Shown: piece by piece, positions 1,646 through 64,000 of the stretch
How the letters are laid out: each line of letters starts with the position of its first letter
How positions within the stretch are numbered: position 1 is the first letter of the stretch
Source of the DNA: Minisyncoccia bacterium
GTDB taxonomy: Bacteria > Patescibacteriota > Minisyncoccia > UBA6257 > JAAZHW01
Reading direction: 5' to 3'
Assembly (NCBI GenBank): GCA_041550235.1
Contig: JBFEPE010000002.1
Location: 909 to 64,908, forward strand
Length of the DNA stretch: 64,000 bases
Notes under the pieces: generated by a model
What the model was told of the DNA's origin: nothing
Seen by the model: the letters and a program-made list of their open reading frames with translations, nothing else
Database searches by the model: none
Translations under genes and position numbers: made by a program

Positions 1646-1785
1646 TTTTTTCTCCTGTTTTTTTTATATTCTATTTTTAAACATTCTTTAAGAAACTTTT
1701 CCCAGTTTCTTGCCTCTATTATATCATAAATAAATATATTTGTCAATATGCGGGGATAATTTGATATATAATGGTAAGGACGAAC

Positions 1786-1940
1786 ACCCCGTCTCAGCCA
1801 CGTTGAAATTGCGAAGCAATTTCTTTCGTGGCGAGCCACCCCTCTATAAGAGGGCAGAATGTCCGCCTATGGCGGGGAATAAGATAAGAAAAGCTTCGAT
1901 GGGCGAAACCCGCCTTCGTCAAGACTTCGGCGAGGCGAAG
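1786..1940. repeat. mosaic GC-rich hairpin repeat block (modules ACACCCCGTCTC, CCACGTTGAAATTGCGAAGCAATTTC, CCACCCCTCTATAAGAGGG, GTCCGCCTATGGCGGGGAATAAG, AACCCGCCTTCGTCAAGACTTCGGCGAGGCGAAG)
   Basis: The same modules recur at 13615-13900, 20920-20975, 30615-30800, 39480-39535, 50930-51200, 57745-58030 and 60680-60785, in both orientations. Confidence 0.7.
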
Positions 1941-1946
1941 AAAAAT

Positions 1947-2387
1947 ATGAAGATTATATTATTAAAAGATGTGAGGGGGATTGGGAAGAAAAATGAAATT
2001 AAAATAGTGGCGGATGGATTCGCCCGAAATTTTTTGATTCCAAATGGATTAGCAATATTGGCAACAAAAGAAAAAGAGAAAAAAATTGATGAGTTAAATG
2101 TCAAAAAAAATAGAGATGATGAAAAAATGAAATTAAAGCAAAAAGAATTGGTGAAAAAAATAGAATCAATAAAATTAGAATTTGAATTAAGGGGAGGGAA
2201 GGGGACTGCCTTTGGTTCAGTGAGTAAGGAAGATATTCAATCAAAATTGAAGAAAGAGGGTATTGATATTAGTATTAAGCAAATAGAGTTAGAAAAGAAT
2301 ATTAAGAAAAGTGGGGAAAATAATATAAAAATAAAATTTGCCCCGCAGATTGAGGCAAATCTAAGAATTTTGGTGAAGATAATTTAA
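1947..2387 (+). CDS. rplI: 50S ribosomal protein L9
   Basis: [36 protein letters not shown] matches the L9 N-domain. The listed ORF start at 1740 is read-through of the upstream repeat block. Confidence 0.85.
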
Positions 2388-5327: not shown

Positions 5328-5802
5328 ATTCAATAAAAAAAATGGCTTTACTTTATTAGAGGTTTTAATATCCATTTCTATTTTAGCAATAATAGGTGTT
5401 ATTGGATTTACTTATTTAGCAAATTATAGGAGGTCGTCTCAGTTGAATTTAGAAGCGGGTAGAATAGTTGGTTATTTTCGCCAGACACAAAATAATGCAA
5501 TAGCCGGTAAGAATTTATCAGATTGGGGGATTCATTTTTCTAATCCGAGTGGAGATGGTGGGGATTTTTTTGTTATTTTTGAGGGGAGTTCTTTTGGCTC
5601 AAGCACTACAACAGAGAGAATTTATCTAAATAAGGGGGTTGGGTTTAGCATTCCCGCCGATGATAGTTCCATTGATGTTATCTTTCAGAGAAATAGTGGA
5701 AGGACAAGTTCCTCTACTATTTCAATAATATCAAAGGTTAATACAAATTTAAGCAAGCAAATTAAAATAAATTCATTAGGACAAATAATCAGCAGCGAAT
5801 AG
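5317..5802 (+). CDS. prepilin-type N-terminal cleavage/methylation domain protein (type IV pilin/pseudopilin)
   Basis: N-terminal KKNGFTLLEVLISISILAIIGV matches the GFxxxE prepilin signal. Confidence 0.7.
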   Translation: MNIKFNKKNGFTLLEVLISISILAIIGVIGFTYLANYRRSSQLNLEAGRIVGYFRQTQNNAIAGKNLSDWGIHFSNPSGDGGDFFVIFEGSSFGSSTTTERIYLNKGVGFSIPADDSSIDVIFQRNSGRTSSSTISIISKVNTNLSKQIKINSLGQIISSE

Positions 5803-13614: not shown

Positions 13615-13900
13615 ATAGATTAAAGCATTCCCCCGTCCGCCAGAGGCGGATGTGCCACCTTCGGCGGGGGGCACCCCGCCTTCGCCAAGGCTTCGGCAGG
13701 GCAATGCCCGTCCAGCCAGAGGCTGGCCACCCCTCTATTAGAGGGCAGTATGTCCGCCTATGGCGGGGAATAAGATTTATATCTTAGGTGGTAGTGGATA
13801 TGAGGTTTGATTGTATATAAAACTATGAGTATATTGTTATAAATTAAAGACCCTCCCCCCGCCGAAGGCGGGGGGAGGGTCAAGAGGCTTAATATAACAA
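13615..13900. repeat. composite BIME-like block of GC hairpin modules between rplD and rplW
   Basis: Contains GTCCGCCAGAGGCGGATGTGCCACC, CACCCCGCCTTCGCCAAGGCTTCGGCAGGGCAATGCCCG, CCACCCCTCTATTAGAGGGCAGTATGTCCGCCTATGGCGGGGAATAAG, and CCCTCCCCCCGCCGAAGGCGGGGGGAGGG. Confidence 0.7.
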
Positions 13901-16768: not shown

Positions 16769-17005
16769 ATGTCAAGAATTGATAATTTGATTAAGAAATT
16801 TAATAATAATCCATCATCTTGCAGATATTCAGATATAGAAAAAATCTTAATTTATTTTGGATTTGAGAAAATTAAAGCCAAGGGAAGCCATATTAAGTTT
16901 AAGCATCGTAAGTTAAATTTTGATTTCATTATCCCTATTCATAATAATGAATGTAAGGATTTTTATAAAAACCAAGCAAAAAAACAAATTGATAAAATAA
17001 TTTAA
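16769..17005 (+). CDS. hicA: HicA-family mRNA interferase toxin-like protein
   Basis: 78 aa with ..IEKILIYFGFEKIKAKGSHIKFKH..IIPIHNNE.. (HicA GSH-x-K-x-K and downstream P-x-H pattern). Confidence 0.55.
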   Translation: MSRIDNLIKKFNNNPSSCRYSDIEKILIYFGFEKIKAKGSHIKFKHRKLNFDFIIPIHNNECKDFYKNQAKKQIDKII

Positions 17006-17014
17006 ATAAATAAT

Positions 17015-17329
17015 ATGAAAAAAACTACTGGATACATTACAATAAATAATAAAAAGCATAAGTATATCTTAGAGAAAAGAAAGTCTAATATCTTTTTTGA
17101 TTGCGAAGATGCTAATATTTCTCAAGAGTTTTTAGCCGAGGATATACCAAATCTAATATTGGATTTACCAAATCTGATAATGGCTGAAAAAGAATACAAA
17201 AAGAATCAATCAGAAGTGATAAGATTTAGAATATCATCAAAAGACAAGCGAAAAATAGAGCAGAAAGCAATAAGCCGAGGATATGATTCAATCTCTAAGT
17301 ATATGAGAGATATTGCCCTACATCAATAA
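17015..17329 (+). CDS. putative antitoxin with C-terminal ribbon-helix-helix (HicB-like partner)
   Basis: 104 aa. C-terminus VIRFRISSKDKRKIEQKAISRGYDSISKYMRDIAL is RHH/CopG-like. 9-nt gap to hicA. Confidence 0.45.
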   Translation: MKKTTGYITINNKKHKYILEKRKSNIFFDCEDANISQEFLAEDIPNLILDLPNLIMAEKEYKKNQSEVIRFRISSKDKRKIEQKAISRGYDSISKYMRDIALHQ

Positions 17330-30614: not shown

Positions 30615-30800
30615 AGGGCAAGGAGAAACACCCCGTCTGTTTTCGGCGGGACGTAATAAATTATTTCATAATTTAAACGTCCCAGCCACGTTGAAATTGC
30701 GAGGCAATTTTTTACGTGGCGAGGCGAAACCCGCCTTCGTCAACCCGCCTTCGCTAAAGCTACGGCAGGGCAAGGGACTTCGGCGAGGCGAAGAAAAATA
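30615..30800. repeat. composite GC-hairpin repeat block
   Basis: ACACCCCGTCTG, CCACGTTGAAATTGCGAGGCAATTTTTTACGTGGCGAGGCGAAACCCGCCTTCG, CTACGGCAGGGCAAGGGACTTCGGCGAGGCGAAG. Confidence 0.7.
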
Positions 30801-35247: not shown

Positions 35248-35454
35248 ATGAATAAAGATGTGCAAAAAATTAAAAAGAGTGTTTGTAAAGTTAGTTGTTG
35301 TCGGGGCGGTTGTTTTAAATCAAGTCATCATATTTCACCTATCAAAAAAGAAGATTTGAAGGAGAAGGCAAAAAGGGCTACATTAAAAGTACTCAAGGAG
35401 TATAAAGGGGTATTTCATAGGCTTGCTGAATATGATAGAGGATTGCCAAAATAA
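35248..35454 (+). CDS. small Cys-rich protein (68 aa), putative cognate antitoxin of the downstream Doc-family toxin
   Basis: Overlaps the Doc ORF by 32 nt. CKVSCCRGGC cluster. Not Phd-like. Confidence 0.4.
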   Translation: MNKDVQKIKKSVCKVSCCRGGCFKSSHHISPIKKEDLKEKAKRATLKVLKEYKGVFHRLAEYDRGLPK

Positions 35455-35899
35455 TATTAATAAGATTAATATTAAGATTATGGAGATTATGTGTCATCCA
35501 ATGGCGATGGATTTTTTTAATTCAAAAACAGATCCAATTTCCTGTTTTTCAAGACATGATAGGAATAAGTTAGAAGCAATTCTTAATAATCCATATCAAA
35601 CATTTAACCAGAAAGAATTATACCCAACATTTAATAAAAAAGTGGCAATACTTTATTATGGATTAATAAAGGGGCATTGTTTTGAGAATGGAAATAAAAG
35701 AATAGCCACTGCTACTCTTTTAGTATTTTTGTTAATAAATGATATTTTTATTACGGGAGATTATCAAGAAATAGAAGACTATTTAGTTGATTTAGCATTG
35801 AGATTGGCATCATCAGAAGGCAACGATAAAATGGATGATTTTCTTTTGGAAATTGAGAAATGGCTTGATGGTAATACAATAAAAACATTAAACTATTAA
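35423..35899 (+). CDS. doc: Fic/Doc-family protein, Doc (death-on-curing) toxin type
   Basis: HCFENGNKRIA matches the Doc signature Hx-F-x-(D/N)-G-N-K-R. Confidence 0.7.
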   Translation: MLNMIEDCQNNINKINIKIMEIMCHPMAMDFFNSKTDPISCFSRHDRNKLEAILNNPYQTFNQKELYPTFNKKVAILYYGLIKGHCFENGNKRIATATLLVFLLINDIFITGDYQEIEDYLVDLALRLASSEGNDKMDDFLLEIEKWLDGNTIKTLNY

Positions 35900-43230: not shown

Positions 43231-43299
43231 TAATAAAATTTTTTTATCATCTTGTTTGTTGTCCTTGTATCTCTCTCTGTCGTCCCCGTATTTTCCCTC

Positions 43300-43390
43300 C
43301 TTGTCACCCCCGCGAAGGCGGGGGTCTAAAAAGATGGCAAGTGGGTGGTGGTAGCGAGGCAGAGATTCCTGCCTTCGCAGGAATGACAAG
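43300..43390. repeat. about 91-bp MITE-like element with CTTGTCA/TGACAAG termini and two internal hairpins (CACCCCCGCGAAGGCGGGGGTCTAAAAA; CTGCCTTCGCAGG)
   Basis: Related copies at 57933-58008 and 63527-63623. Confidence 0.5.
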
Positions 43391-43416: not shown

Positions 43417-43950
43417 ATGAGTGATGATGTCTTTAATAGATTAGAAAAAGATTTGTATATTAAATTATTGGATTATGGATTTAAAAATCCACAGGGGTTT
43501 AATTTTAAAACAATTAAGGAGTATTTGAAATTGAATGAATATGATGAGAGGATATTGGAGATAAATATTGAGAATGCATTTATTAACACTAGAAATCGCG
43601 ATGTTGATAGTAAGGCCGCTGTTCAAGAGACAATCTTTCTATGCCTTGCTGATAGGCAGGGTCGTCATTTTGATGAGGGAAAAAAATATGTCCTCACTCT
43701 TGAGGCGAGGGGAAAATATATTGATTATTTAGAACTAACAGAGGCGAGAAAATTTTCACAAAAAGCATCGCTGGATGCAAAAAGGGCAATAAATATTGCA
43801 AAATGGGCATTGATAGTTTCAATTATTATCGCATTCATTTCAATTATATTTTCACTTATTCAAATATTAAGACCTATAAAAATAGACAAAAGCCAATTTA
43901 ATCAAGTTATAGAATATTTAGATAATGGAATGGAGAATGCCACAAAATAA
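43417..43950 (+). CDS. hypothetical protein with C-terminal TM anchor (177 aa)
   Basis: First gene of the secD-secF intervening cluster. Confidence 0.45.
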   Translation: MSDDVFNRLEKDLYIKLLDYGFKNPQGFNFKTIKEYLKLNEYDERILEINIENAFINTRNRDVDSKAAVQETIFLCLADRQGRHFDEGKKYVLTLEARGKYIDYLELTEARKFSQKASLDAKRAINIAKWALIVSIIIAFISIIFSLIQILRPIKIDKSQFNQVIEYLDNGMENATK

Positions 43951-44011
43951 GGGGTAGATAAATCTTTCCGCATCAACCCCCTTGACTTATTTTAAATATA
44001 TGTTATAATCC

Positions 44012-44197
44012 TTGTGGGAGGTTAAAATGAGTGATTTTAATAAAATAAATAATATGCCGGAAAAAACCGTGAGCCAGTTAGAAAAAAAGATAGTGGTCAT
44101 TAAAGAATTGATTGGAAGATTGTCTGGGATTAAAAAAATTGAAACTCAGGCAATGCTGAAAACTTTTTATGTAAAATTAGAGAATTTAAAAAAATAA
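44012..44197 (+). CDS. hypothetical 61-aa protein
   Basis: ORF followed by a terminator. Confidence 0.35.
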   Translation: MWEVKMSDFNKINNMPEKTVSQLEKKIVVIKELIGRLSGIKKIETQAMLKTFYVKLENLKK

Positions 44198-44229
44198 TAG
44201 GCTTGATAATTTATTATCTTGTCTATAAA

Positions 44230-44261
44230 AAACAAGGCTAAATGTTTGGCCTTGTTTTTTA
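44230..44261 (+). terminator. rho-independent terminator ACAAGGC..GCCTTGT + T6
   Basis: AAAAACAAGGCTAAATGTTTGGCCTTGTTTTTT. Confidence 0.7.
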
Positions 44262-44313
44262 ATTATTAATTTTTTCTTTGTGTTTTTTATTTATATAGAT
44301 ATAATAGTAATAT

Positions 44314-44700
44314 ATGAAAGTTAAATTAAATTTTTTACATATCTGCGATGAGGTAATTGCCTCTATTGATGGAAAAATAAGCATTATAGGAATGTTTTCC
44401 GTTATTAATACCTTAAAGGTCCCAGCAAACCACCCAAAATTTTATATAATGGTTAATATGACTGCTGATCCGGGCAAATATGATCAATTAATAGAAATAG
44501 TGTCGCCAAGTGGCAGGGTTGTTTCTAAAATAGAAGGAAAATCGGTAATAATTAAAGAGGGTGGGGTAAGTAATTTTATTGCAAACTTCGTAAATACTCC
44601 ATTGCCCGAATTAGGCAGGTATAAGATTAGGGTCTCTGTTGAGGGGGAAATTTTAAGCGATGATGAGGGCTATTTCTTTGATGTTATAAAAAAAGCATAA
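44314..44700 (+). CDS. hypothetical 128-aa protein
   Basis: Coding-like composition. Unknown family. Confidence 0.45.
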   Translation: MKVKLNFLHICDEVIASIDGKISIIGMFSVINTLKVPANHPKFYIMVNMTADPGKYDQLIEIVSPSGRVVSKIEGKSVIIKEGGVSNFIANFVNTPLPELGRYKIRVSVEGEILSDDEGYFFDVIKKA

Positions 44701-44707
44701 TAATTAT

Positions 44708-45100
44708 ATGAACTATACTTTCTTACAAAAAAGACCATTGTTTTTATATGATAAAGTTTCAAATTCTAGTCAATCACTAGATGAGGTTGTTTTTTCTGAA
44801 AATTATCTTGAAAATTCAAGGGGTTTATTAATTTTTAATTTGAGTTCTGATAAGATATATTTAAAAAATGCCCCGCTATTTATTGACAGAGATGTAGATG
44901 AAGATGGGAATATTATTTATTCAAATTCAGATTTAGAAATATTTGGTTATGGCGATACCGACGAGGAGGCAAGAGCGGATTTTGAAAAAGTATTAGAGGA
45001 TTTATATATTTGTTTTAATCAAGAAAAAGAAAAAAATAATCTTCACAATAATGCAATTCCACTTTGGAATCTTTTGGATAATATTTTAAAAGAGAAGTAA
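44708..45100 (+). CDS. HicB/UPF0150-like antitoxin candidate
   Basis: LEIFGYGDTDEEARADFEKVLEDLY resembles the conserved HicB segment (..GxTxEEAxxNxKEAI..LE). Confidence 0.4.
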   Translation: MNYTFLQKRPLFLYDKVSNSSQSLDEVVFSENYLENSRGLLIFNLSSDKIYLKNAPLFIDRDVDEDGNIIYSNSDLEIFGYGDTDEEARADFEKVLEDLYICFNQEKEKNNLHNNAIPLWNLLDNILKEK

Positions 45101-45106
45101 TACATC

Positions 45107-45385
45107 ATGCAATTAAAAATAAAAGAAGCAAAAAGGGTCATTGATAAATTAGAGATGAGGGGGAGAGAGGGGAATGATACTCTCTGTTATTTTTATCACG
45201 AGGGAAAAATGACTAATATATTTACTAGAATCCCCCACAAAAACGGAGATTTAAAAGGCAAGTTGCCCGATTTCATACGACAGCAATTAAAATTAAATGA
45301 AGAAGATTTTCTGAATTTGAAAAAATGTTCATTGAGTAAAGAAGGATACATTGAAATATTAAAAGAAAAAGGGATAATTGATTAA
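45107..45385 (+). CDS. HicA-like toxin candidate
   Basis: CYFYHEGKMTNIFTRIPHKNGDLKGKLPDFIRQQLKL resembles the HicA C-terminus (..H...G...T.P.H..kel..gtl..Ilkq). Confidence 0.4.
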   Translation: MQLKIKEAKRVIDKLEMRGREGNDTLCYFYHEGKMTNIFTRIPHKNGDLKGKLPDFIRQQLKLNEEDFLNLKKCSLSKEGYIEILKEKGIID

Positions 45386-49334: not shown

Positions 49335-49462
49335 TAATAATTTTTGAAAATATCTCCCCTCGCCTACGGCGAGGGGAATAATCAAACCCGCCCGCCTGAG
49401 GCGGATGTGCCACCTTCGTCAGCCTTTGGCGGACTTCGGCGAGGCAAGGTAATATAAAAAAT

Positions 49463-50929: not shown

Positions 50930-51200
50930 ATAGAGATTAAATAGAAGCAAAAAAACAATACCCCCCCCGCCGCAGGCGGGGGGGGTATTGTCATTCCTGT
51001 CCGCCTGAGGCGGATTATACTCCGGCAGGAATCTAATTCTCCGCCGTAGGCGGACATTCTGCCCTCCATAGAGGGGTGGTTCGTCTCAGGCGGGACGGGC
51101 ATTGCCCTGCCGAAGCCCCTTGCCCTGCCGTAGCCCGCCGTAGGCGGACATTCTGCTTTAGCGAAGGCGGGTTGGCGAAGGCGGGGTGTTTCTCTAAAAT
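50930..51200. repeat. largest composite block of GC-hairpin modules in the window (at least 8 hairpins, several in reverse orientation)
   Basis: CCCCCCCGCCGCAGGCGGGGGGG, CCGCCTGAGGCGG, CCGCCGTAGGCGG, reverse complements of the CCACCCCTCTAT and ACACCCCG modules, CGAAGGCGGG x2. Confidence 0.7.
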
Positions 51201-53643: not shown

Positions 53644-53938
53644 TAATAAAAGGTTTTGAGATGATAGCAAAAATTTTGTCTAATGCAAATTAATTCTCAA
53701 ATGTCTTTGACTTTTGATTTATTTCATATAAAATAATCAATATATTGAAATAAATAATATATTTAATAACTTGAGATAGAATAATATTAATCCCCCCCCG
53801 CCATAGGCGGGAGGGGGATATAGGTGTATCATCTATTCAATATATTGAGATAAGATAATTTAAAGCAATACTATTATCTCTCCCCCGACTTCGTCGGGGG
53901 AGAGCATAGACATATCATTTATCAATCAAATAAAAATT

Positions 53939-54682
53939 ATGGAAAAGAGTAATTTAAAACAAGGATTTCAAGAGATGGAAAGAGACGGATTAATAAGCCC
54001 AATGGTTAAGGGATTAGTTGAAAACCGCTCTTATTTAGGTCATAGTTCATCAAGAAGCAATCCAAAAATGAAACAATTTATTGTTGGCTCAAAAGGAAAT
54101 TTAGAAATAATAAATTTAGATAAGACGGCTGAGTTTTTGTCAAAAGCAGTTGATGAGGTAAAAAAATTAGGAGGCGAAGGAAAGAGCATTTTTTTTGTTG
54201 GTTCTGACCCGATAATTAGAGATTTAATTGAAAAAATGGCAATTAAGGCAGAATCACCATATGTTATTGGTAGATGGTTGGGTGGTCTTTTGACAAATTT
54301 TAAAATACTCTCATCAAGATTGAAGCAATTTTTAGATTTACGAGATAAGGAGCAGAAAGGAGAATTAAAGAAATATACGAAGAAGGAGCAGGGTCAATTT
54401 AGGAAAAAGATTGAAAAATTATCGCGATTGTTTTATGGCTTGGAGAATTATAAAAGATTGCCGGATGCTATTATCTTGGTAAATATAAATCTTCATGAGA
54501 CGGCAATTGCTGAGGCGAAAATTATGAAAATACCGGTAATTGCAATTGTAGATACAGATTCAAATCCTGAAAAAGTAGATTATCCAATACCAGCCAGTGA
54601 TCAAGTGAGGTCAAGTGTTGAGTTTGTATTAAATAAATTAGTCGATGGTTATAATGAAGGCAGAAATGCTTTGAAAAAATAA
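53939..54682 (+). CDS. rpsB: 30S ribosomal protein S2
   Basis: LHETAIAEAKIMKIPVIAIVDTDSNPEKVDYPIPASD. Confidence 0.9.
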   Translation: MEKSNLKQGFQEMERDGLISPMVKGLVENRSYLGHSSSRSNPKMKQFIVGSKGNLEIINLDKTAEFLSKAVDEVKKLGGEGKSIFFVGSDPIIRDLIEKMAIKAESPYVIGRWLGGLLTNFKILSSRLKQFLDLRDKEQKGELKKYTKKEQGQFRKKIEKLSRLFYGLENYKRLPDAIILVNINLHETAIAEAKIMKIPVIAIVDTDSNPEKVDYPIPASDQVRSSVEFVLNKLVDGYNEGRNALKK

Positions 54683-57323: not shown

Positions 57324-57671
57324 TTAATCTTCTTGCTTTTTCGTCGCAGGCACGCGATAGTCTATGGGTACTCCCTGGCTAAGAACATTTTTCATTGTCC
57401 CGAGGGTGAATGTTAGTAAATAAAATAGCTCGCGTGTGTTTATTCCACCTTCATCATTCGCCAAATTTTTTAGGCAAGGCATCTTTTCTTTAACCGGAAT
57501 ACATACATCCAAATACTTTTTACCATCAATATGCGGGGCTTCAAAGTGGATATTTGCCCCACCGAGATTGTATCCCCTTATGATACAAGATGCAATCATT
57601 GATGCTAGATCCCTAGGCTCTTTAAATTCAACCGTGATTTTATCATCTTCACTTTCTTTATGCTTATGCAT
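57324..57671 (-). CDS. hypothetical 115-aa protein (weak OsmC/Ohr-like Cys pattern) encoded antisense between rplN and rplX
   Basis: Start set at MHKHKESE, which has RBS AAAGGAGG. Motifs ASCIIRG and LDVCIPV. Confidence 0.45.
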   Translation of the reverse strand: MHKHKESEDDKITVEFKEPRDLASMIASCIIRGYNLGGANIHFEAPHIDGKKYLDVCIPVKEKMPCLKNLANDEGGINTRELFYLLTFTLGTMKNVLSQGVPIDYRVPATKKQED

Positions 57672-57744
57672 GGTAAAACCTCCTTTTATATTTCTAAAAT
57701 AATCATAACACATATTTAAATAAAATGTCAAGAGGCGACCCGCT

Positions 57745-58030
57745 TGAGGCGGGCGGGTTGCTGGAGTATTATTTGCCTCTGGTGGAGAGGAACACCCCGT
57801 CTCGCCAAGAGGCGAGCCACCCCTCTATTAGAGGGGAATAAAACAACTTGAAATTATTATTTAATTATTGTAATATAGGGTTTGTTTGGTAATCTTGCGA
57901 GTAAATTACTTTGAATTATGAAATGCCTCCCTCTTGTCACCCCCGCGAAGGCGGGGGTCTAAAAACCTCGCCAAAACGGAGATGCCCGCTTTCGCGGGCA
58001 TGACAAAGAAGAGACGGGAATGACAAAGAA
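57745..58030. repeat. composite GC-hairpin block including a MITE-like copy (57933-58008)
   Basis: CGACCCGCTTGAGGCGGGCGGGTTG, ACACCCCGTCTCGCCAAGAGGCGAGCCACCCCTCTATTAGAGGGG, CTTGTCACCCCCGCGAAGGCGGGGGTCTAAAAA, GATGCCCGCTTTCGCGGGCATGACAA. Confidence 0.7.
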
Positions 58031-58035
58031 AAAAT

Positions 58036-58356
58036 ATGAATTCAATAAAAACAAAAGTTAAAAAAGGAGACGAAGTAATGATGTTGGCAGGAAAAGACAA
58101 AGGCAAAAAAGGAAAAATATTAAGAATATTGAGAGAAAAAAATAAAGTAATGATTGAGGGCTTGAATTTAGTAAAGAAACATCAAAGACCAAGAAAGCAA
58201 GGAGAAAAAGGGGAAATTGTCTCATTGCCAAGATTTGTAGATATTTCAAATGTTGGAATATATTGCTCTCCTTGTGGAAAAGGAGTGAGAGTCGGATATC
58301 GTCTTGATGGCGATCAGAAAATAAGAATTTGTAAAAAATGTCAGCAAAGCATATAA
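58036..58356 (+). CDS. rplX: 50S ribosomal protein L24 with a four-Cys zinc-ribbon-like C-terminal insertion
   Basis: KKGDEVMMLAGKDKGKKGKI..LNLVKKHQRP (KOW), then CSPCGKG..x17..CKKC. Confidence 0.85.
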   Translation: MNSIKTKVKKGDEVMMLAGKDKGKKGKILRILREKNKVMIEGLNLVKKHQRPRKQGEKGEIVSLPRFVDISNVGIYCSPCGKGVRVGYRLDGDQKIRICKKCQQSI

Positions 58357-59137: not shown

Positions 59138-59527
59138 ATGGATACAATAGCAGATTTATTAACACAAATAAGAAATGCATTAGCGGTTAAGAAACCGCTT
59201 ATTTCTGTTCCACACTCAAACTTCAAACAGAATTTAGCCGAATTATTAAGTCGCAGAGGATATTTGGGAAAGATTGAGAAAACAGGAAGGGGTGTTAAGA
59301 AAAATATTAAAATAGAATTAAATTATGACGAGAATGGAAGCCCAAGAATAGTAGAAATAAAGAAAATAAGCAAGCCCGGACAAAGAATATATTCTACTGC
59401 ATCAGAGATAAAGCCAGTAAAGTCGGGACTGGGTCATAGAATAATCTCTACTTCATCAGGATTAATGTTTGATTTTGAGGCAAGAAAGAAGGGATTAGGA
59501 GGCGAAGTAATCTGCGAAATATTTTAA
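59138..59527 (+). CDS. rpsH: 30S ribosomal protein S8
   Basis: MDTIADLLTQIRNALAVKKPLISVPHSNFK. Start trimmed from the listed ORF, which begins inside rpsZ. Confidence 0.9.
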   Translation: MDTIADLLTQIRNALAVKKPLISVPHSNFKQNLAELLSRRGYLGKIEKTGRGVKKNIKIELNYDENGSPRIVEIKKISKPGQRIYSTASEIKPVKSGLGHRIISTSSGLMFDFEARKKGLGGEVICEIF

Positions 59528-59540
59528 TATCTTTCTTTAA

Positions 59541-59581
59541 ATAAAATCCACCGCCAACCATTTTGGTTGGTTGGTGGCGGA
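59541..59581. repeat. perfect palindrome ATCCACCGCCAACCA-TTTTGG-TTGGTTGGTGGCGGAT (bidirectional terminator-like hairpin after rpsH)
   Basis: Read directly. Confidence 0.6.
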
Positions 59582-60122
59582 TAGGAAAGTGTTCTTCTTC
59601 TAGTCTCTTTTTTCAGATTTCTCCTTACAAGAGTTAGGAGGGGGGTTGGTCTCATTAAAAATATTATGTATATAGAGAGACAGAATAACGAGAAGTTAAC
59701 GGGAGCAATTATGGGCAAAATGTCTAATGGTAATCCAAATAAACCCAAGCATGCTATAATCGTTATTGAAAGCAATAAAATCGGTACCCTAAGCATAATA
59801 TAAACAGCAAGTAATAATAAAATTTTTTTTGCACTCATTTCTTTTCTCCTTATTATAATATTTTCTTACTTTTAAATTGTACTACTTTATCTATACTCAT
59901 TATAACATATTCATAAAAATTTGTCAAGGGGCTGAAAATGTGTCATTATATATCACGAAAATAAGGGTATATATTGAAATCTTTAAATAAATAATTAAAC
60001 TAATAAGATTATATTAAAATAGAGGGATTGCCTCCCCCTCGCAAAGCGAGGGGGAGGCAGGGCATTGATATAATTAATAAATAATTAAACTAATAATAAA
60101 ATAATTAATATCATAAAATACC

Positions 60123-60668: not shown

Positions 60669-60679
60669 TGAAGGGTGAT

Positions 60680-60785
60680 ATTCTGCCCGCCCGCCTATGG
60701 CGGGGGGTGATAAGACCCACCTTCGTTAAAACTTCGGCGGGGCAAAACCCGCCTTCGTTAAAACTTCGGCGAGGCGAAGTAAAAA
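60680..60785. repeat. hairpin repeat block (CCGCCCGCCTATGGCGGGGGG; two copies of CCGCCTTCGTTAAAACTTCGGCG(G/A)GGC)
   Basis: Read directly between rplF and rplR. Confidence 0.7.
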
Positions 60786-61235: not shown

Positions 61236-61814
61236 ATGTTTGATAAGAATAATCAACAATTTAATAATAGAGGTAGGGGTAAAAAAGGTCCATTTAAGGG
61301 AAGAGGCAGAAGACCGATGATTGAAAAGAAGTATGATGAAAAACTTCTTAGTTTGGATAGAGTAGTCCGAGTAACCGCTGGAGGAAAGAGGTTTAGTTTT
61401 AGGGCAACTATGGCAATGGGCGACAAGAAGGGAAAGGTAGGAGTAGGTATTGCCAAGGGAAAGGATGTCGCTTCTGCTATTGCCAAAGCAAAGGCGGATG
61501 CTGAAAAAAACATGATTTCTCTTAATATCTCCGAAAGAACAATTCCTCATGAGACAAGGGCAAAATATTGTGCAGCTGATATAATAATAAAACCAGCAAG
61601 CGCTGGTCATGGATTGGTGGCTGGTGGAGCAATAAGAACAATTTGTGATTTAGTAGGAATAAGGGATATTTCAGCTAAGAAGTTGGGAAATACGAGCAAT
61701 CAATTGAGTAATGCGAGGGCGACTATTCTCGCTCTACAAAAGTTGAGATTTAAGGATTTAGGAAAGAAGGAGGAGGTTGCTTCTTCTGTCACTCCTGCGG
61801 AGGCAGGGGCTTAA
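61236..61814 (+). CDS. rpsE: 30S ribosomal protein S5
   Basis: RVVRVTAGGKRFSFRATMAMGDKKGKVGVGIAKGKDV. Confidence 0.85.
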   Translation: MFDKNNQQFNNRGRGKKGPFKGRGRRPMIEKKYDEKLLSLDRVVRVTAGGKRFSFRATMAMGDKKGKVGVGIAKGKDVASAIAKAKADAEKNMISLNISERTIPHETRAKYCAADIIIKPASAGHGLVAGGAIRTICDLVGIRDISAKKLGNTSNQLSNARATILALQKLRFKDLGKKEEVASSVTPAEAGA

Positions 61815-61907
61815 AGTATAAGACAAAAAATGAGAGAAACATGAGATGCCCCGCCTAAGGCGGGCAGGCTGCCGGAGTATTATCCGCCTCTGGCGGGGAA
61901 TATAAAT

Positions 61908-62330: not shown

Positions 62331-62665
62331 TTTTTATTATTTTGTGCTCTTTGATTATCTGTCTGATATTATTTTGATTATTTTATTTTTTGTTTTTTGT
62401 TTCTGTCATCTCTGCTTTTCTTTTGTCATACCTGTCCGTTAGAGGTGGCACATCCGCCTCAGGCGGGCGGATAGTACTTCGGCAGCTTGCCCGCCTATGG
62501 CGGGAATGACAATAAAAATTTATTGAAATAAAAAAATAGGACAGAGGTTGCTTTTTCTCAAAGCAACATGTCCAATAGACCTCTTGCAAAATAGCAATCA
62601 TCTTCCATTCTTTTAGGCAGAAACCTCCCAAATTTCAGAATATTATCTATGAATTAGATAACATT

Positions 62666-63058
62666 CTAAAGTTTTTGCATAGAGCAAAGACAAATCCACC
62701 AAACAAAAACATTAAGGATTAAAAATCCTGCCCTCGAAAACCCCACTACATCACTATTCTTGCTTTTGATTCCACGGATGCTTAATATCGATAAATAAAG
62801 AAAGAAGATGACACCGAATATAACATCGTCCATCATGAGTATTTTTTGAAAACCAAGTTCTAATATTAGTATTGTTGAAAAAATTGCCGTCAAAGAGAAT
62901 AGTATCACCATTTTATTTTCTTCTTTTCCCCACCATCCGCTTAATTTCTCTTTTTTTTCTTTCCACCAATTCCACCAATTTTTACTTGAAATCTTTAATT
63001 TATCAAAAGATGATAAATGTAGATATTTTTTGGAAAGTTCCTTATATGATAAACTCAT
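62666..63058 (-). CDS. hypothetical Trp-rich membrane protein (130 aa)
   Basis: ORF with a GAGAGG RBS, encoded antisense between rplO and secY. Confidence 0.4.
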   Translation of the reverse strand: MSLSYKELSKKYLHLSSFDKLKISSKNWWNWWKEKKEKLSGWWGKEENKMVILFSLTAIFSTILILELGFQKILMMDDVIFGVIFFLYLSILSIRGIKSKNSDVVGFSRAGFLILNVFVWWICLCSMQKL

Positions 63059-63200: not shown

Positions 63201-63356
63201 TTATTGAGCATTAGGGAATATCCCAAAAATTTCCCTTATTTCTTTGCCTATTAATAGATCCATTCTTGCAATCCATAAGACCAATCCAATGATTATTAAA
63301 ATAATCTGAGATATACTTAATTCTCTTAAAAAATTAAAAAACCACTCCATTTCCAT
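63201..63356 (-). CDS. small (51 aa) single-TM protein, not in the ORF track
   Basis: Own translation: MEMEWFFNFLRELSISQIILIIIGLVLWIARMDLLIGKEIREIFGIFPNAQ*. RBS GGGAGGT. Followed by a terminator. Confidence 0.4.
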   Translation of the reverse strand: MEMEWFFNFLRELSISQIILIIIGLVLWIARMDLLIGKEIREIFGIFPNAQ

Positions 63357-63484: not shown

Positions 63485-63650
63485 CGACAAAAAAACACCC
63501 CGTCCCGCATGAGGCGGACATGACACTCTCTTTGTCGCCCCCGCGAAGGCGGGGGTCTAAAAACAAAGCAAAGCGGAGATGCCTGCCTTCGCAGGCATGA
63601 CAATAAAAGTGGGAATGACAAGGGGGGGATAATTTATCTATTTCGTAATT
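63485..63650. repeat. composite GC-hairpin block including a MITE-like copy (63527-63623), immediately upstream of secY
   Basis: ACACCCCGTCCCGCATGAGGCGGACATGACA, CTTTGTCGCCCCCGCGAAGGCGGGGGTCTAAAAA, GATGCCTGCCTTCGCAGGCATGACAA, GGGAATGACAAGG. Confidence 0.7.
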
Positions 63651-63668
63651 CAAAGAATAATATAAAAA

Positions 63669-64000
63669 ATGAAATTTTTTGAGAAAATAAGGCAGGTATT
63701 TCTATTACCTGACTTAAGAAAAAAAATATTTATAGTCTTGGCTCTATTAGTAGTAGTCCGATTATTTGCCGCCGTTCCAGTTCCGGGAATAGATGCCGAA
63801 AGATTGAAGGCAATTTTTGCTTCCAGTCAATTGCTGGGAATATTAAATATATTCTCAGGAGGAACACTTAGCAACTTATCCATTGTGATGCTTGGAGTTG
63901 CCCCATATATTACCGCGACGATTATTATGCAACTTTTGACAATGGTTTTCCCAAGATTAAAAGAAATGTATCATGAAGAAGGTGAGGCAGGCAAGCAAAA
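63669..64000 (+). CDS. secY: preprotein translocase SecY, 3'-partial (runs off the window end)
   Basis: Own translation: MKFFEKIRQVFLLPDLRKKIFIVLALLVVVRLFAAVPVPGIDAERLKAIFASSQLLGILNIFSGGTLSNLSIVMLGVAPYITATIIMQLL.. Absent from the ORF track because no stop codon falls inside the window. Confidence 0.85.
   Translation, partial: MKFFEKIRQVFLLPDLRKKIFIVLALLVVVRLFAAVPVPGIDAERLKAIFASSQLLGILNIFSGGTLSNLSIVMLGVAPYITATIIMQLLTMVFPRLKEMYHEEGEAGKQ

Follow-up and report, generated by a model that had tools for sequence, protein, structure and literature searches.

A repeated two-hairpin element of a Paceibacteria genome is probably an inverted dimer of CGTC-1 REP / Ssn-related-motif hairpins

The 64-kb stretch of Paceibacteria (CPR) DNA analyzed here, which we refer to as the window, carries several copies of an element built from two outward-facing hairpins. 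We propose that each copy is an inverted dimer of CGTC-1 REP / Ssn-related-motif (SRM) hairpins, recognized and nicked as single-stranded DNA (ssDNA) by an Ssn-type nuclease, and we put the probability of this reading at about 0.7. Matches to published patterns, the conservation of bases that are critical in Ssn work, and the association of the element with a nuclease gene at one locus in another phylum (Caulobacterales L029) together point to an inverted heterodimer of CGTC-1 / Ssn-related hairpins. The host range of CGTC-REP / Ssn-motif repeats would thereby extend to a Paceibacteria (CPR) genome: the host group is new, and the kind of repeat is known. In a streamlined, AT-rich episymbiont lineage, abundant G+C-rich repeats in ribosomal-protein and secDF operons were unexpected.

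The original prediction described three copies of a MITE-like element, each directly upstream of a gene start. The three copies and their common blocks are real: the 26-mer CCCCCGCGAAGGCGGGGGTCTAAAAA has three exact plus-strand matches in the window, at 43307, 57940 and 63538, and was found in none of 100 dinucleotide-preserving shuffles. The predicted second block, GAT(T/G)CC(T/C)GC(C/T)TTCGC(A/G)GG(A/C)ATGACAA, is likewise present in all three copies, where it forms a hairpin with compensated stem changes (TCCTGC/GCAGGA, GCCCGC/GCGGGC and GCCTGC/GCAGGC). Each copy does lie directly upstream of a gene, with start codons at 43417, 58036 and 63669, and the distance from the 3' end of a copy to the start codon is 8-46 nt rather than the 30-45 nt first given. 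Copy 1 precedes an orphan 177-aa ORF, the first of a five-gene insert between secD and secF; copy 2 precedes rplX and copy 3 secY. All three lie at the edges of accessory insertions within the secDF and spc operons. Copy 2, placed at 57933-58008 in the original prediction, indeed starts there and runs on to 58027. The count of three holds for exact copies and has to be raised overall, as the window also contains a fourth, diverged copy at 61787-61901 and solo arm modules at 50988-51035 and 62424-62512. All four copies are in the sense orientation immediately upstream of genes that are functionally unrelated (the orphan ORF, rplX, secY and, for copy 4, rplO). The window copies are intergenic except for copy 4, whose left arm codes for the final nine codons and the stop codon of rpsE.

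The termini CTTGTCA and TGACAAG, on which the original prediction was built, are inverted as claimed, but they are only the outer tips of two arms of ~27 bp; the real repeat is the whole arm, and copy 3 begins TTTGTCG rather than CTTGTCA. Each arm is the reverse complement of the other and forms a hairpin of its own (left, GTCACCCCCGCGAAGGCGGGGGTCT; right, read on the other strand, GTCATTCCCGCGAAGGCGGGAATCT). Since hairpin 2 is thus the reverse complement of hairpin 1, the element consists of two ~27-bp arms facing outward. The string GAATGACAAG, which had been taken for a separate terminal block in copy 1, is the 3' end of the second hairpin. Each arm comprises a 5' (C/T)GTC tag, a G+C-rich stem of 8 bp in both hairpins, a 4-nt loop (GAAG, CTTC or TTTC) and a C-Y-N tail (CTA or CTC). 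The tags sit at the ends of the element, and the arms are separated by a spacer of 17-34 bp in the window copies, or longer. The parts of the element in the window are as follows.

43300-43390, plus strand: copy 1; downstream start codon at 43417.
43302..43328, plus strand: copy 1 left arm, TGTCACCCCCGCGAAGGCGGGGGTCTA, with TGTC tag, 8-bp stem, GAAG loop and CTA tail; matches the relaxed SRM pattern.
43329..43361, plus strand: copy 1 G/T-rich "long" spacer, containing GATGGCAAGTGGGTGGTGGTAGCGAGGCAG.
43362..43388, minus strand: copy 1 right arm, reading TGTCATTCCTGCGAAGGCAGGAATCTC on the minus strand; the left-arm motif inverted.
50988..51035, plus strand: solo extended-arm module, TTGTCATTCCTGTCCGCCTGAGGCGGATTATACTCCGGCAGGAATC, inside a 240-bp hairpin mosaic.
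57848-57876: promoter-like TTGAAA-17-TAATAT, just upstream of the outer arm at 57909..57924.
57909..57924, plus strand: left arm of an outer AT-rich inverted repeat, CTTTGAATTATGAAAT, a lineage-specific second layer.
57933-58027, plus strand: copy 2; downstream start codon at 58036.
57935..57961, plus strand: copy 2 left arm.
57978..58005, minus strand: copy 2 right arm, TGTCATGCCCGCGAAAGCGGGCATCTCC; a strict match to the published SRM search pattern.
58015..58027, plus strand: copy 2 extra half-arm, GGGAATGACAAAG, a tandem partial duplicate comprising the right-arm stem half and tag.
61787..61813, plus strand: left arm of copy 4 (diverged), TGTCACTCCTGCGGAGGCAGGGGCTTA; in the stem, one change is compensated and one gives a wobble pair.
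61843..61901, plus strand: copy 4 right arm of the "extended" form, its ATxCC…GGAAT stem enclosing other hairpin modules.
62424..62512, minus strand: solo extended-arm module bounded by TTGTCAT…ATGACAA; its 3' part, 62482-62511 on the minus strand, is a strict SRM pattern match.
63530-63622, plus strand: copy 3; downstream start codon at 63669.
63533..63559, plus strand: copy 3 left arm, TGTCGCCCCCGCGAAGGCGGGGGTCTA; an A-to-G change at the first stem base gives a G-T pair.
63576..63602, minus strand: copy 3 right arm, TGTCATGCCTGCGAAGGCAGGCATCTC on the minus strand.
63610..63622, plus strand: copy 3 extra half-arm, GGGAATGACAAGG.
63640..63655, plus strand: right arm of the outer AT-rich inverted repeat, ATTTCGTAATTCAAAG.

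Further copies beyond the window, anticipated in the original prediction, do exist, about 35 of them in a closely related Paceibacteria MAG. Scanning one genome per species for the exact pattern yielded 47 loci, and 33 copies came from one MAG, Candidatus Paceibacteria bacterium Mix_mud12.2021.10.51 (JBFFCO01; the sister genome), whose copies are all intergenic. Its proteins are 90-100% identical to window proteins, which places the window in that species or a close relative of it. The two-arm unit is also present in contigs attributed to Pirellulales, Alphaproteobacteria (including Caulobacterales), Omnitrophota and Dehalococcoidia. Its asymmetry is kept across phyla, with a CCCCC stem on the left and an ATTCC or ATCCC stem on the right, and the arms are near-identical in at least six phyla; the tag reads TGTC in Paceibacteria and CGTC in the other phyla. 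Contigs of Syntrophobacteraceae and Micavibrio carry related units in which the right arm is diverged or degenerate. A partner arm is recognizable in 26 of 35 Paceibacteria copies and in 11 of 26 copies from other phyla. In a metagenome scan, a 28-mer of the left arm found one match, a full dimer without a GIY-YIG gene in a contig of 54% G+C (L050); a lineage-specific pattern found none in metagenomes, and a scan of viral contigs for the element also returned no match. What is conserved across phyla is the inverted heterodimer, not the single hairpin.

The spacers of simple dimers span 7-40 bp and fall into three recurring types common to several loci, which indicates that whole units, rather than single hairpins, have been copied. 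The "long" spacer of copy 1 belongs to one such subfamily, also found in ~10 copies of the sister genome. In 13 sister-genome copies the right arm is extended by other hairpin modules nested inside its stem, and the extended right arm of copy 4 is homologous to these. The outer AT-rich inverted repeat (CTTTGAATTACGAAAT / ATTTCGTAATTCAAAG) contributes at least one arm around the dimer in 19 of the 35 Paceibacteria copies. At a practical level, the repeats break short-read assemblies of the window organism, of which one short-read contig ends inside hairpin 1. A full-text literature search for the arm sequences found no other description of them.

Single-strand folding of the three copies on both strands gave z-scores of -3.1 to -4.6 against shuffled controls, and the predicted folds are either two local hairpins or one long arm-to-arm stem. 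We aligned 23 simple dimers and found hairpin 2 to be 100% paired, with two positions changed on both sides of the stem in seven sequences each. Outside the tags, the flanking ends pair for another 3-5 bp, again with compensated changes, as in two alphaproteobacterial copies that read CCGCTCA/TGAGCGG. Positions T9, C10 and C31 are invariant in this alignment and G8 is conserved in at least 90% of copies; in the two exceptions to the conserved tag, both arms have changed together (CTCA/TGAG). The end pairing includes T-G wobbles that favor the top strand, which is slightly more stable than the bottom strand (mean -2.4 kcal/mol, p = 0.04 in a strand-asymmetry test, a weak effect).

The right arm resembles the Neisseria dRS3 repeat. 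REPs have been sorted into GTAG-tagged and CGTC-tagged super-families (Di Nocera et al. 2013, PMC3733652). Within the latter, CGTC-1 repeats combine a CGTC tag, often TGTC (or CCTC), with an 8-bp stem, a 4-nt loop and a short tail; they form mostly inverted dimers, some of them heterodimers, with 20-100-bp spacers of conserved types; and they include Neisseria dRS3 and Rickettsia RPE-6, with Micavibrio as a further host (Di Nocera et al. 2013, PMC3733652). No dedicated transposase is reported for CGTC-1 repeats, and CGTC repeats are reportedly never found next to RAYT or IS200 genes (Di Nocera et al. 2013, PMC3733652). Our element fits this definition in its tag, 8-bp stem, 4-nt loop and short unpaired tail, and equally in its inverted-dimer organization with conserved spacer types. 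CGTC-1 stems also have A-T pairs at the first and second positions. Right arms of the ATTCC type fit this trait (A-T, T-A), whereas in right arms with ATGCC (window copies 2 and 3) or ATCCC (some other loci) only the first pair does; the left-arm stem has A-T as its first pair and C-G, rather than A-T, as its second.

The CGTC-1 family is also that of the NTS and SRM hairpins. The NTS, a longer, oriented form of dRS3 (CGTCATTCCCGCGMAVGCGGGAATCYRG), and the related SRM are bound and cut by Ssn, a single-domain GIY-YIG nuclease of ~94 aa (Chenal et al. 2025, PMC11893778). Ssn acts on ssDNA only and in one orientation only, and its cut site is a few nucleotides 5' of the motif; cutting depends most on the GTC that precedes the palindrome, binding on the C that follows it (Chenal et al. 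2025, PMC11893778). As a rule, the motif borders the ssn genes, which encode single-domain cd10448 GIY-YIG proteins (Chenal et al. 2025, PMC11893778). We searched the window with the published SRM pattern, HGTCWY N0-2 YYVSBRH N0-5 WNVSBRG N0-2 RNCYNB (Chenal 2025, PMC11893778), and obtained two strict matches, 57978-58005(-) and 62482-62511(-), against 0.04 in 50 shuffles; a relaxed version gave seven matches against 0.1 in 50 shuffles. Each of the other five arms of copies 1-3 deviates from the pattern at a single position, be it the final base, a base of the stem or the W that follows the tag. At 25 of 28 positions, right arms of the sister genome agree with the NTS consensus CGTCATTCCCGCGMAVGCGGGAATCYRG, and across the 23 aligned copies the bases critical in Ssn work, GTC ahead of the palindrome and C behind it, are invariant or nearly so.

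An association with a nuclease gene comes from the Caulobacterales locus L029, where a single-domain GIY-YIG gene of 95 aa (Pfam PF01541, E = 3e-18) has a complete two-arm unit on each side and the very arm variant of our element 30 nt upstream. Three tandem motifs of a different variant flank a second Ssn-like gene, at a Dehalococcoidia locus. The only gene that we found bracketed by the two-arm unit is a GIY-YIG nuclease gene in another phylum, which gives circumstantial support to the published suggestion that arm-ssn-arm units are IS-like. The original prediction envisaged a cognate full-length element with a transposase: no transposase was found near the copies, and the GIY-YIG gene and its flanking arms at L029 are instead a candidate full-length form of the element, in another phylum. 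Within the 64-kb window, no GIY-YIG gene was detected by tblastn, by a motif regex or by an HMM made from three GIY-YIG proteins, and no Ssn-type gene was found in ~164 kb of the sister MAG. One sister-MAG locus (L016) does contain a distant 77-aa GIY-YIG gene, located beside a tRNA and not flanked by the hairpins described here; in NCBIfam and PDB searches its product matched UPF0213 structures only, which does not place it relative to Ssn.

These features bear directly on how the element should be classified. Part of the original MITE description stands, in that the element is short, non-coding, multi-copy, intergenic and probably mobile, with terminal inverted repeats, two hairpins and subfamilies of whole-unit spacers, but the class itself does not. 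A classical MITE would be a deletion derivative of a DDE-transposase insertion sequence that moves by cut-and-paste via its terminal inverted repeats, and we judge this origin very unlikely. The expected target-site duplications are absent at every boundary offset: with 37 copies checked at 64 offsets, a shared 2 nt was seen in no more than 4 of 37 copies at any offset and a shared 3 nt or longer in 0-1, and outside the ends the flanks complement each other instead of forming direct repeats. No transposase was seen among the window ORFs tested, a subset of the total, or at loci adjoining the copies, and near-identical arms in at least six phyla are typical of CGTC REPs, not of IS-derived MITEs. 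The predicted empty sites in related genomes did not materialize in clean form, as exact-protein look-ups either found no match or led back to the same organism, whose contigs are broken at the repeat. At two orthologous loci of these near-identical strains, at 53.7-53.9 kb and 1.7-1.95 kb, with flanking proteins 83-100% identical, the sister genome carries the dimer and the window carries unrelated G+C-rich hairpin modules, and the switch point falls directly after a conserved promoter-like sequence. Such turnover looks like the replacement of whole leader segments, not simple insertion. A strain variant (L002) carries an inserted hicBA cassette immediately 5' of the promoter ahead of the rplX copy. 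A GTAG-type REP or REPIN moved by a RAYT (an IS200-like tyrosine transposase), or a PATE of IS200/IS605, would share with our element the hairpin dimer and, as a natural partner, a hairpin-specific ssDNA enzyme (PMC11893778); with a tag of (C/T)GTC, with CGTC repeats reported never to flank RAYT or IS200 genes (PMC3733652), and with no RAYT-type gene among the subset of window ORFs tested, we regard this assignment as highly improbable. CGTC-type REP / Ssn-related-motif inverted dimer is a better label for the element than classical MITE.

A different group of explanations assigns the hairpins a role as signals in RNA or as recombination sites. G+C-rich hairpins between genes, with copies 1-3 at the edges of accessory insertions, could be passive signals such as intrinsic terminators, mRNA 3'-end stabilizers or the recombination sites of an integron-like cassette system, but neither hairpin is followed by a T-run on either strand, the copies lie upstream rather than downstream of genes, and neither an integrase nor attC core sites (GTTRRRY) were found, so that we give this group almost no weight. 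Separately, the core motifs of hammerhead and twister ribozymes are absent, and there is no array of the kind expected of a CRISPR repeat. A cis-acting leader RNA, in which a regulatory or stabilizing 5'-UTR is maintained by selection at the RNA level and the paired ends and two hairpins correspond to P1, P2 and P3, has more in its favor and is still unlikely. The sense placement of all four window copies 8-46 nt before start codons, the promoter-like sites just upstream of copies 2 and 3, the compensated changes in the hairpin and in the end pairing, and the T-G (U-G in RNA) pairs that stabilize the top strand are all compatible with it. Placement and strand-favoring wobbles therefore keep an RNA-level role as one reading of the data. 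Yet compensated changes are equally expected of an ssDNA hairpin, the genes downstream share no function, and in other phyla the two-arm unit occurs in unrelated contexts, including around the nuclease gene. The suggestion in the original prediction that the element was co-opted as a promoter or leader does not hold in general: of the 33 sister-genome copies, 22 have the following gene in the sense orientation and 11 in antisense, a split that is not decisive, with five copies antisense to both neighbors, and the promoter-like hexamers of copies 2 and 3 lie upstream of the element rather than inside it. Rfam matches in the window at the gathering threshold are limited to tRNAs, and copy 2, searched at E up to 1, reached at best 15-23 bits against cut-offs of 35-100. 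Because of the 22-to-11 orientation and the slight strand asymmetry, we rank an RNA function as a minority rival. Given promoter-like hexamers outside and upstream of the copies, the window copies are probably transcribed as leaders, most likely as a tolerated by-product and not as their function.

Returning to the inverted dimer of CGTC-1 / Ssn-related hairpins, we suggest that the element acts as DNA. In a single-stranded state, during replication, DNA uptake or transcription, each arm would fold into a hairpin that a small GIY-YIG nuclease of the Ssn family could bind, nicking a few nucleotides 5' of the tag. With the arms inverted and their tags pointing outward, the predicted nick sites lie just outside the two ends of the element, one on each strand. 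This geometry would fit an IS-like arm-ssn-arm unit together with its gene-less derivative, the dimer, and the repeats would then spread and be exchanged among intergenic sites as whole units. Binding and cutting in the window lineage, mobility, and effects on recombination or mRNA are what we infer from this scheme. A bolder version holds that the two-arm heterodimer (CCCCC-stem plus ATTCC-stem) is the mobile, gene-less form of arm-ssn-arm, an ssDNA element driven by an Ssn-type nuclease that crossed phyla into CPR; we offer it tentatively and consider it more doubtful than not. If it were true, the dimers would mark intergenic hot spots in DNA-scavenging, competence-dependent cells, where accessory cassettes (hicBA, orphan ORFs) and alternative mRNA leaders would be swapped into essential operons such as spc and secDF. 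CPR bacteria are thought to depend on DNA uptake, and the window contains pilM and prepilin-like genes. Given this presumed reliance on DNA uptake, a role in ssDNA restriction or recombination, as reported in Neisseria, would be biologically relevant.

Among the closest known systems are CGTC-1 repeats, with which the element shares a tag that changes to TGTC, the sizes of stem, loop and tail, inverted dimers with conserved spacer types, heterodimers of differing stems, occasional intragenic units, and unusually similar sequences in several phyla. It differs in its host, a Paceibacteria (CPR) genome of 33% G+C from a group not included in the survey of Di Nocera et al. (PMC3733652), in the C-G second pair of the left arm in place of A-T, in tails of CTA/CTC instead of CCA, and in the many copies with modules nested in the right arm and an outer AT-rich inverted repeat. 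With the NTS/SRM system it has in common a hairpin with an orienting GTC flank and a C after the palindrome. That system comprises hundreds of intergenic copies bracketing genes, and its arm-ssn-arm layout is seen here at L029 with the very arm variant of our element; on the other hand, neither the window nor 164 kb of the sister MAG yielded an ssn gene, and Chenal 2025 treats single motifs whereas the conserved unit here is a two-arm heterodimer. REPIN/RAYT systems likewise involve inverted REP doublets, the presumed mobile unit, which are partnered by a hairpin-specific ssDNA enzyme and lack target duplications, but their tag is GTAG and their enzyme a Y1 transposase rather than a GIY-YIG nuclease, and neither enzyme was found here. 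The NIMEs of Neisseria are short units bounded by inverted copies of one hairpin (dRS3), form mosaic intergenic arrays of different modules, and show strain-to-strain replacement at a locus, all of which recall our element; they belong to another lineage with unrelated internal modules, and the DNA-uptake sequences and Correia elements are not present here.

The dimer is itself one component of a larger set of hairpins in the window. In this 33% G+C DNA, G+C-rich islands make up 24% of intergenic bases versus 4.8% of coding bases, and 37 of the 53 intergenic regions of at least 60 nt contain at least one. The islands consist of several hairpin families combined into mosaics, a system reminiscent of Neisseria's mosaic intergenic elements and of enterobacterial BIMEs.

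Small orphan ORFs on the reverse strand break up the spc (ribosomal-protein) operon of the window in the rplN/rplX, rpsH/rplF and rplO/secY gaps, and a five-gene insert separates secD from secF. The edges of the spc and secD-secF insertions in the window are occupied by hairpin repeats. An insertion also distinguishes L002, a strain variant from another sample: a hicB-hicA cassette (L002 1-700), absent from the window at 57800-57860, lies between module CCACCCCTCTATTAGAGGGGAAT and the promoter that precedes rplX, and comes with a decayed right-arm leader. The window itself contains a HicA/ribbon-helix-helix pair and a Fic/DOC-family gene, and therefore has more small accessory modules in this reduced genome.

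Insertions and accessory genes in the window
57324-57713, 59524-59838, 62666-63058 and 63201-63356, reverse strand: small orphan ORFs in the spc operon
43417-45385, forward strand: five-gene insert between secD and secF, including DUF6941
16769-17329: HicA toxin gene with ribbon-helix-helix partner
35432-35899: Fic/DOC-family gene

The genome has 33% G+C, and its intergenic DNA contains mosaic arrays built from several further families of G+C-rich hairpin modules. Stems of the CCCCCCGCC-NNN-GGCGGGGGG type mark one such family, which has 17 copies in the window, where G+C-rich islands hold 24% of intergenic bases versus 4.8% of coding bases. At two orthologous loci with flanking proteins 83-100% identical (window 53680-53940 versus L037, and window 1700-1950 versus L026, both loci from the sister genome), the whole stretch from a conserved promoter-like sequence to the start codon consists of a different hairpin module set. 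Because the promoter-to-start segment is wholly replaced in each case, mRNA leaders seem, from these alignments, to be exchanged among strains.

A different inverted repeat, AT-rich and 16 bp long (CTTTGAATTACGAAAT / ATTTCGTAATTCAAAG), brackets many dimers; across 228 kb of Paceibacteria loci it occurs at 38 sites. Since a -10-like TATAAT often precedes it, this repeat may be a transcript-start mark or a protein-binding site. Immediately beyond both ends of many dimers, in the window and at many of the sister-genome copies (Paceibacteria MAG JBFFCO01), lie tandem partial duplicates of a stem half plus tag (GGGAATGACAAG on the right side, CTGTCGTCCCCG-like on the left), which may have been left by successive rounds of cutting and repair, or by insertions nested in one another.

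Repeats and arrays in the window
1778-1937, 13622-13771, 30616-30794, 49351-49450, 50953-51194, 57727-57839 and 60673-60775: examples of G+C-rich hairpin mosaics
57909-57924 and 63640-63655: 16-bp AT-rich inverted repeat
43276-43292, 58015-58027 and 63610-63622: partial duplicates of stem half plus tag

Contigs assembled from short reads of the same organism stop within hairpin 1 (L051 at 5400-5416, L001 at 1-30), and the repeats thus break up this lineage's assemblies. The element is also carried by L047, a contig binned as Deltaproteobacteria that is visibly AT-rich around the match, and by L003, binned as Pirellulales (45% G+C). In both, its flanks are Paceibacteria-like (…GAAATACCTCCC…GTCAC), and on this resemblance both may be mis-binned CPR DNA.

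Finally, ribosomal protein S5 ends in nine residues (SSVTPAEAGA) that, along with the stop codon, are specified by the diverged left arm at 61787-61814, so that here the repeat supplies coding sequence. Rickettsia palindromic elements have likewise been reported to add coding sequence, as this arm does in the S5 gene, rpsE.
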